In this document: piece after piece, positions 34,876 through 42,069 of the stretch
Layout: each line of letters opens with the position of its first letter
Position numbering within the stretch: the stretch's first letter is position 1
DNA from: an uncultured delta proteobacterium
GTDB taxonomy: Bacteria; Myxococcota; UBA727; VGSZ01
DNA length: 64,000 nt
Direction of reading: 5' to 3'
Assembly: GCA_963775425.1 (NCBI GenBank)
Contig: CAVZJB010000016.1
Location: 384,001-448,000, forward strand
The notes under the pieces: generated by a model
Databases searched by the model: none
What the model was told of the DNA's origin: nothing
Seen by the model: the letters and a program-made list of their open reading frames with translations, nothing else
Translations under genes and position numbers: made by a program

Positions 34876-37800
34876 ATGCCCGTCCGCTCCCCTATGCCGT
34901 CCCGCGCCCGCCCACCCTTGCGGACCGCCGTCTCAGTCGCCGTCACCGTCGCGGGGCTCGCGTTGGCCGCGCAGCCGGCGCACGCGGTCCCCGAGATCAC
35001 CATCGACGACGTCAGCGCGGCCGAGGGCAACGCGCCGGCCGCCTCGACGACGCTGTCGTTCACGGTCACGTTGAGCGAGGCAGACACCGCCAACGACACC
35101 ACCGTCGACTTCGCCACGTCCGACGTGGAGGCGCTCGCCGGTGAGGACTACGTCGCGCAGACCGACGTGCTCACCATCCCGGCCGGCGACACCACCGGCA
35201 CCATCGACGTCACGGTGAACGTCGACGACCTCGACGAGATCGACGAGACGTTCCTGGTGACGCTCTCGAGCCCCTCGGCCAACGCCGTGCTCGGCACCAA
35301 GGTCATCGGCGTCGGCACCATCCAAAACGACGACACCCCGCCCGAGGTGTCCATCGCCGACCCGGCGTCCATCACCGAGCAGGACGGCAACCTCGTCTTC
35401 ACGCTCTCGCTGTCGAAGACCGCGGGCCGCGACCTCTCCGTCGACTTCGCCACCGCGGACGTCACCGCCACCGCCGGCGCCGACTACGACGCCACCAGCG
35501 TCACGGTCGCCTTCGCCGCCGGCGACGACAGCCGGACCGTCAGCGTCCCGATCCACGACGACGCCCTCGACGAGCTCGACGAGACGTTCACCGCCACCCT
35601 CTCGAACGGCGCCAACGTCACGGTCGCCGCGTCCCCCGACGACACCGCCACCGGCACCATCGTCGACGACGGCGACACCCCGCCCACCATCGCGGTGCTC
35701 GACCAGAGCTTCTCCGAGGGCGTCGGCACCGCCGGCGTCGTGGTCACCCTCGACCGGCCGAGTGGGCAACCCGTCACCGTGGCGTTCGCGACGGCGCTCG
35801 TCACCAACGAGGCCTCGAGCGCCGACTTCGACACCTCCGCGGCCGGCACCATCACCTTCGCGCCCGGTGAGACGTCGCAGACCGGGCCCGTGGACATCAC
35901 GCAGGACGACATCGACGAGCCCGACGAGCTCTTCTCGTTCGACCTGGACCCCGCGAGCCCCACCGGCGGCGCCTCGGTGGACGCGGCCCACAAGAGCGCC
36001 AACGTCACCATCGTCGACGACGACGACCCGCCGATCATCAGCATCAGCGGCGGAGAGGCCACCGAGAACGCCGGCGGCGGCGGCGACAAGGTGACGTTCA
36101 CCGTCACGCTCGATCACCCGAGCAGCACCGACATCACCGTCGACGCGGACACCCGCGACGGCACCGCCGTCGGCAGCAACACCAACGGCGCCGACTACGA
36201 CAACACCAACACCTCGGTCACCTTCCCCGCCGGCCAGACGTCCCGGACGTTCCAGGTGGACACCAACAACAACAACGTCGCCGAGCCGGACCAGGACTTC
36301 TTCGTCGACCTGTCCAACGCCAGCCCCAACGCGAGCATCTCCACCACCGCGGGCACGGCGGAGGGCATCATCCACGACGACGACGCCGACCCGACCGTGC
36401 AGATCCAGGGCAGCCGGAGCATCACCGAGGGCAACGGTGGAGTGGGCGGCGCCACGCTCAGCTTCGACGTCACGCTCAGCGCCGGCAGCGAGAAGGACGT
36501 CACGGTGGACTTCGCCGCCGCGTCGGGGACGGCGACGGAGGGCGCCGACTTCACGGCCACCAGCGGCACCCTCGACTTCGGCGGCGACCCGAGCCTCCGC
36601 ACGCTCACCGTGGACGTGCCCATCACCGGCGACGTCCTCGACGAGGACAACGAGACGTTCACGGTGACCCTCTCGAACCTGGTGAACACCACCATCCAGC
36701 CGGGGCGCGACGTCGGCACGGGCACCATCAACGACGACGACAACCAGCCCACGCTCTCCATCGCCGACGTCAGCGTCGACGAGGGTGACACGGGCACCAC
36801 CACCATGTCGTTCGTCGTCGCCCTGTCCGCGCCGTCGGGGCGCGTCATCACCGTGGACGCCGCCACCAACGACGGCACCGCGCACCAGCCCGGCGACTAC
36901 GCGCAGACCTCCACCACGCTCACCTTCCAGCCCGGCGACGTCGCCGCCAGCGTCGACGTGCCGGTCGTCGGTGAGGACCTCTTCGAGCCCGACGAGACGC
37001 TCACGGTCCGCCTGTCGGGCGCGAGCCACGCCACGCTCCCGTCGAACCCCGACGACCGCGCCACCGGCACCATCCGCAACGACGACGCGGAGCCCACGCT
37101 CTCCATCGCGGACGCCACCCTCGACCCCGAGGGGGACACCGGCGCGCGCAACCTCGGCTTCGTCGTGTCGCTCACGAACCCCTCGTCGCAGGTCATCGCG
37201 TTCGACTTCGCCACCTCCGACGGCACGGCCACCGAGGGCGCGGACTACGTCGCCACCAACAGCTCGGCGGCCATCTCCGCCGGCACGCGCCAGACCACCG
37301 TCAACATCGTCGTGGGCGGCGACACCATCGACGAGCCCGACGAGACCTTCAACGTCACCGTCAGCAACGTCACCAACGCGCAGGCTGGCCGCACCAACGC
37401 CGTCGGCACCATCGTCGACGACGACGTCGCCCCTACGCTGAGCGTGGTGGCGCCGCTGCAGCCGGCCACCGAGGGCGACAGCGGCACCACCACCCTCGGC
37501 TTCGACATCGCGCTGAGCGCGCCCACGGGCCAGGAGGTGACGGTGCACGTGGCGTCGCAGGACGACACCGCGCACGCCAACCCCGCGGGCGGGCCCGGCG
37601 AGGACGACTACGTCCCGCTCCCGGACACGCTCCTCACGTTCGCCCCCGGCGACACCGTCAAGCACGTCGACGTCACCGTGAAGTCCGACGTGTTCGACGA
37701 GGCCGATCAGGAGCGCTTCGCCGTGGTGTTGTCCTCTCCGGTGAACGCCGCCCTCGGCGCCGGGACCAGCACCGGCTTCGGCGTCATCAACGACGACGAC

Positions 37801-42069: not shown

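Follow-up and report, generated by a model that had tools for sequence, protein, structure and literature searches.

Architecture of the Locus

The window, by which we mean the whole 64,000-nucleotide stretch of DNA, contains one continuous open frame at 34876–42069 on the forward strand. It encodes 2397 amino acids, and its ATG is preceded by GGAGG five bases upstream. The anatomy given in the first-pass annotation was borne out: this is a single ORF with an N-terminal signal, nine Calx-beta repeats, an internal MYXO-CTERM tag, a second signal, a beta-barrel, TSP3 repeats, and an OmpA domain (Table 1). From its repeats, the N-terminal head would be a calcium-stiffened extension that serves in adhesion.

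Table 1. Features of the polyprotein gene and its upstream neighbor (window coordinates)
Feature	Position	Strand	Basis
Kelch-propeller gene, possibly in the same operon	31415..34855	+	Pfam
Whole ORF (P0001)	34876..42069	+	2397 aa; precursor about 245 kDa
N-terminal signal peptide, residues 1–37	34876..34986	+	Own matrix, score 21.1
Calx-beta repeats, nine (ends approximate)	34987..38160	+	PF03160, 344 bits, nine stretches
Big_9/cadherin-like and Ig-like domains	38209..39231	+	Pfam; He_PIG below cut-off
Acidic TSP3-like and cysteine-rich repeats	39241..40218	+	TIGR02232, 27.4 bits (cut-off 20.8); NF047638 partial; sequence
Hydrophobic-x-hydrophobic-x-Gly strand upstream of the tag, candidate barrel-docking element	40219..40242	+	Motif counts; model
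Internal MYXO-CTERM tag: Cys1794/Cys1796, transmembrane helix, five Arg	40249..40353	+	TIGR03901, 33.6 and 34.2 bits; helix in models
Internal signal peptide: Arg cluster as n-region, h-region 40381–40431, Ala-x-Ala, predicted cut before 40447	40339..40446	+	Matrix
Predicted outer-membrane beta-barrel, FapF/COG4313 fold	40447..41274	+	pLDDT 86–98; Z 23.0 against FapF 5o65
TSP3-like repeats downstream of the barrel	41314..41700	+	Sequence
OmpA-family peptidoglycan-binding domain	41752..42039	+	PF00691, 67.4 bits

AlphaFold models of the junction and the barrel contain two helices and a confident barrel. The best structural matches of the barrel model are FapF (rmsd 2.8 over 233 aligned residues) and the COG4313 channel (Z 21.3). 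The solved barrels of this fold have 12 strands.

The Kelch gene also lies upstream in the relative G009. On the other side, a 748-aa gene (42066–44312, +) overlaps the stop of the ORF in an ATGA and has a 7TMR-DISM membrane domain together with what we take, from its motifs, to be a nucleotide cyclase domain; in G009 this gene does not follow the ORF. Next come two cysteine-rich proteins in tandem (44215–45003 and 45007–46047, both on the reverse strand), whose N-termini are lipoprotein-like and which have no Pfam match, and then a protein of 1012 aa (46148–49186, +) with a proprotein-convertase P domain at its C-terminus and no assigned domain in its N-part.

The Internal Tag and the Second Signal

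The internal tag is recognized by the MYXO-CTERM model TIGR03901 well above its cut-off of 20 bits and is the best-scoring tag of the genome. The N-terminal signal aside, no 19-mers in the protein are more hydrophobic than the two segments at the junction. Signal peptides were scored with a home-made matrix rather than SignalP (trained on 45 stand-alone barrel genes; threshold 8.8). The second signal that had been claimed to follow the tag scores 17.3. Over the whole protein, the matrix fires at the N-terminus (in two overlapping windows), at the junction, and once weakly inside the barrel (11.3). The protein thus has the Cys motif, transmembrane helix, and Arg cluster of a MYXO-CTERM substrate, and an N-terminal signal by our matrix. 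The tag is not at the C-terminus, as 571 residues lie downstream of it. The genome encodes a myxosortase core, which is barely over the cut-off of its model (NF040914; 102.1 bits against 100).

Fused, Split, and Solitary Barrels

A first profile, with the junction included, had matches in 179 of the 201 genomes of the phylum, mostly barrels of any kind (the unpublished G176 is counted here and nowhere else). The profile was then rebuilt from barrels alone, so as not to favor the joint, and used on 25 genomes. The census covers 133 of the 158 listed matches; after removal of eight partial or weak matches and one duplicate, 124 genes were scored. This survey of fused and split homologues gave 29 fused barrels, 11 split barrels next to a tagged gene, and 84 alone, in genomes that are kin and not independent and with eight of the 29 fused calls assigned by eye. 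Every scored barrel with a long upstream coding region has the tag and the signal. The signal score reaches at least 8.8 in 28/29 fused barrels, compared with 2/480 extracellular windows and 0/41 terminal tags. In the census, 21–40 residues separate the basic cluster from the predicted cut, and the distance never falls below this range; P0007, from the set of long proteins, has a much longer loop. The first residue after the predicted cut is usually Gln.

Among the long proteins, 89/91 pass the signal matrix, in a set that was found with the junction-containing profile and is hence biased towards the joint. A protein search with the barrel only returned just three other long proteins, a small sample, all with tag and signal. 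Of the 67 loci scored in named Myxococcaceae, 41 are fused; the signal matrix recognizes every one of the 41, including the fused M. xanthus AM003 gene adjoining ftsZ. The ftsZ locus accounts for 29 of these 41.

On a barrel tree of 140 rows, made by a quick method, the fused label changes 18 times, at least eight times on strongly supported branches; the direction of change is not given. Because the tree needs so many changes and the joints of the four-unit chains described below vary by lineage, fusion and fission recur. Seven Corallococcus barrels (L476, L480, L484, L490, L491, L493, and L497) stand alone behind remnants of a tag or adhesin tail. Their sequences suggest that the adhesin was lost from a fused gene and that an internal signal can serve as an ordinary one. 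The genome of the window itself also has split tag-then-barrel pairs at G000:C3:631428, C18:34907, and C2:155017, two of them with GTGA overlaps. In another of its TraB-like barrel genes (G000:C11:984285-985799, −), the frame appears to drift upstream of the OmpA domain.

The Joint Beyond Barrels

Tags in the same genome were counted with a local HMM built from 48 tags, five of the seven internal tags among them. It finds 75 tags of at least 18 bits, seven of which are internal. A hydrophobic segment follows 7/7 internal tags, compared with 4/68 read-throughs of terminal tags. The six further internal tag and signal joints have partners other than barrels (G000:C4:383223-387026, C4:379604-382213, C4:660176-663928, C7:254942-260848, C11:71058-72104, and C16:22985-24436). 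Three of these partners begin with a lipobox-like motif, and two chains end in a second tag. The C4:383223 joint is also fused in G003 (56%), the C16:22985 tandem is split in relatives, and the halves of C11:71058 match separately. No fused counterpart spanning the C7 or the C4:660176 joint was found in 38 genomes. Altogether, four of the five non-barrel joints searched were not found fused in the genomes searched.

A joint profile run on 10 genomes detected more joints. In G013, an amidase is joined to a second exported protein (L379:4289-6937, −), and in G098 a possible lipoprotein signal links a repeat protein to a VWA protein (L377:5621-11878, −). A frame of 4051 codons (L375:4644-16796, −, in G098) consists of four CARDB/He_PIG units with 30–34% mutual identity, three joints, and a terminal tag. 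G114 has CARDB/He_PIG chains as well (L415 and L422); the matching locus has all four units fused, and a three-unit chain is also seen. Elsewhere the layout of this locus varies (slash, separate; hyphen, joined): 1/2/3-4 in G220, 1/2-3-4 in G090, 1-2/3-4 in G082, 1/3-4 in G070, and 1/2 in G064. In G102, a joint between units 1 and 2 is followed by a frameshift. The join of units 3 and 4 is kept in seven of the eight genomes read. As judged from sequence, the joint is wider than the pairing of adhesin and barrel: across the phylum it also connects other exported proteins, as many as four in one chain.

A Candidate Barrel-Docking Motif

A short motif, hydrophobic-x-hydrophobic-x-Gly, lies just before the tag cysteine. 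It is found in 20/29 fused and 8/11 split barrel-linked tags and in 67/86 long proteins, compared with 4/66 other tags of the same genome and 0/6 non-barrel joints. These counts come from kin that are not independent and from control tags of one genome, and in two of the 11 split contexts the wrong cysteine was picked. The Gly of the motif is kept in 134 of 136 rows. In a single-chain AlphaFold model with 50 fused rows, the strand block has a pLDDT of 91 between blocks of 53 and 54; with 11 rows its pLDDT is 51. The model suggests that the strand packs against, or docks on, the barrel. The tag of a true TraA does not have the motif. Two terminal tags, G000:C9:256907 and C16:1299668, have the strand motif, and no barrel match was seen beside them; these proteins are possible clients of stand-alone barrels.

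Proposed Processing and Alternatives

In our view, the product of this gene is probably an envelope polyprotein that both signal peptidase and myxosortase cut. Sec would export the adhesin by means of the N-terminal signal. The tag helix would stop transfer, with the Arg cluster remaining cytoplasmic, and the next helix, working as an internal signal, would return the barrel half to the periplasm. A cut by signal peptidase I before residue 1858 would yield a 540-aa (57 kDa) barrel-TSP3-OmpA protein, which would insert in the outer membrane and bind the cell wall. The tag cysteine would be lipidated and myxosortase would cut there, giving a calcium-binding adhesin of approximately 178 kDa with a lipid anchor and exposed on the surface. 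The short strand that precedes the cysteine is probably where the barrel holds this adhesin. The joint would arise repeatedly by fusion of overlapping gene pairs, and would be tolerated because both sorting signals survive. Both cuts, the topology, the docking, the equal amounts of the two halves, and the adhesion are what we infer for this protein. The first-pass annotation read the joint as a hairpin cut by the sortase and by signal peptidase I. All comparative tests agree with this reading: the signal is retained, the joint has a minimum length, restart signals are absent, and there is a myxosortase gene. Its term "self-processing" was dropped; self-cleavage is rejected, as the host signal peptidase and myxosortase would do the cutting.

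One question is whether the two halves are made as a single chain at all. No sequencing run is listed, and the split pairs overlap by four bases, so a single indel could fuse them. The absence of a stop in any frame had earlier been used as an argument against an indel error. The fusion is indeed real, but that argument is not enough by itself, as there is a stop at 40526 in another frame. The decisive evidence comes from relatives. The junction is in the same frame, with no stop inside, in G008 and G009 (47% and 52% identity), and the in-frame junction is the same in P0152; G009 has the full architecture of P0001. Because these three independent close relatives keep the joint, as do dozens of distant genes, an assembly or sequencing error that fused two genes is ruled out, with next to no chance left to it. 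GC3 is 0.85–1.0 across the junction in every 20-codon window, and in close relatives the linker and signal are conserved at 5 and 8 of 31 residues, compared with 149 and 137 of 278 for the barrel. Alternatively, the second protein could come from a translation restart inside the gene, the in-frame join being incidental. In-frame GTG, TTG, or ATG codons are common in the tag helix (in 22/28 fused genes, 17–40 codons before the cut), and ATGA or GTGA overlaps couple the translation of the split forms. However, those codons have no Shine-Dalgarno match. A start codon whose match spans 4 nt or more is present in 0/28 fused genes of the census, compared with 6/10 split and 34/76 solitary ones, and in 0/41 fused joints of the named Myxococcaceae. 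In 15/29 joints, the stretch from the basic cluster to position −15 has no start codon at all, and the only ATG near the joint of the window gene, 13 codons before the cut, has no ribosome site. These sequences make an internal restart unlikely, and we regard it as highly improbable.

The other question is what becomes of the chain. Signal peptidase alone might cut, with myxosortase inert on the hairpin tag and the adhesin left in the inner membrane or freed by another protease; the myxosortase tests described in the passages of PMC11980579 cover terminal tags only. Against this, every row of the joint alignments A3 and A5 has the tag cysteine, and the peptidase cut would leave the tag with a short tail only. 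In addition, a peptide (741–755) from the N-part of the similar M. xanthus protein MXAN_5598 is listed for vesicles in the supplement of PMC4158809, so its N-half reaches the outer membrane. Cutting by the peptidase alone is therefore unlikely. The fusions might also be neutral accidents whose second half is uncut or non-functional, as could be argued from the several non-barrel fusions of this genome that were not found in the relatives searched and from the G102 joint with its frameshift. Such a view is hard to reconcile with a barrel and OmpA domain that are approximately 50–60% identical among fused orthologues, with the fusion kept across Myxococcaceae at the ftsZ locus, or with the retained join of units 3 and 4, and we think it very unlikely.

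The polyprotein cut by both enzymes is thus the reading that we prefer. A broader proposal, to which we would give a little less than an even chance, is that tag and signal together form a portable, twice-cut joint by which operons for exported proteins become polyproteins of two to four units in this phylum, with partners of the signal peptidase I or the lipoprotein type, and that TraB-like barrels are dedicated outer-membrane docks or exit channels recognizing the short strand beside the lipidated Cys of the adhesin, fused or not. If the chains are cut as predicted, sorting tags and signal peptides can function at internal positions, and the joint is a natural linker for envelope proteins in equal amounts. 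Taken by itself, the window gene adds one member to a published layout. The wider interest is that one joint design recurs across the phylum, hiding several proteins under a single annotation, and that the strand motif offers a first handle on the role of TraB-like barrels, of which a genome can have roughly a dozen.

Comparison with Known Systems

The caution that similar fusions may already be annotated was justified. The Discussion of Guo, Haft and Wall (PMC11980579) describes MXAN_5598 of M. xanthus, beside ftsA and ftsZ, as an adhesin with an internal tag, a barrel, and OmpA, and proposes processing of its N-part. The abstract, part of the Discussion, and further passages of that paper do not mention an internal signal or the fate or route of the barrel half; signal peptides are colored in its Table S1, which may bear on the internal signal. 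The words "internal", "polyprotein", and "fusion" are absent from passages of the Haft preprint (10.1101/2023.06.07.544157). Our literature searches, with subscription papers and bioRxiv supplements beyond reach, found no description of the joint. The layout is already known, from one published paragraph; the literature searched gave no account of the internal signal, of the joint as a general device, of chains with several units, or of the strand motif. The vesicle peptide of MXAN_5598 mentioned above is the one N-part peptide present in all three vesicle samples, and the supplement of PMC4158809 is silent on cleavage. In the literature, myxosortase cuts terminal tags and export is by the type II system. 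M. xanthus would allow a direct test of the joint: besides MXAN_5598 itself, there are an mrtX mutant and a cleavage assay in E. coli, as passages of PMC11980579 describe.

The window gene resembles MXAN_5598/AgmC in having an N-terminal adhesin, an internal MYXO-CTERM tag, a barrel, and OmpA in one frame, and MXAN_5598 orthologues also have the second signal and the strand motif. The orthologue at an ftsA-ftsZ locus (L091) is named AgmC by NCBIfam NF047640. The heads are different: that of the window gene is Calx-beta, whereas MXAN_5598 has the AgmC N-domain and Big repeats. This N-domain (NF047640) is absent from the seven families on the N-half of the window protein. The window gene also lies outside the cell-division cluster, between the Kelch and 7TM genes, whereas genes of the MXAN_5598 type lie between ftsA and ftsZ.

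TraA and TraB are likewise a tagged surface protein followed by a barrel-TSP3-OmpA protein, and the barrel half is homologous. Their genes are separate and overlapping, and passages of PMC6372800 and PMC12045341 describe 1:1 complexes; the window gene is a single frame, and its protein has no PA14-like domain. Its halves are not TraA and TraB. On the TraB model NF033763 the window protein, despite its barrel, TSP3 repeats, and OmpA domain, scores 219.5 bits against a cut-off of 700 (true TraB, 1027.5), and its N-half has no match to the TraA model NF033759 (cut-off 750; true TraA, 873.3). A partial TraA query had no match in this genome. TraAB orthology is rejected on both cut-offs and the missing PA14-like domain, and nothing points to outer-membrane exchange. 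For the C-terminal part, the expectation of a barrel stood, whereas the comparison with TraB failed at the model cut-off and the best structural matches are FapF and COG4313.

The barrel fold is also similar to that of type Va autotransporters (Z 16–18). Structural alignments with EstA, AIDA-I, and EspP reach model residues 2–15, which may reflect helices. In the window protein, however, a predicted inner-membrane hairpin of two hydrophobic helices lies between the passenger and the barrel, and OmpA follows the barrel. Membership of this class is rejected, as the passenger is not joined directly to a C-terminal barrel and a shared fold is no proof of transport.

Bacterial polyproteins are considered rare. 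Bradyrhizobium FbcH and viral envelope polyproteins are cut at stop-transfer and signal hairpins, and are similar to the window protein in that a single chain is cut at an internal signal peptide. The joint in the window protein is different: its signal is paired with a sortase tag that provides a lipid anchor, and the same design recurs between partners that are unrelated.
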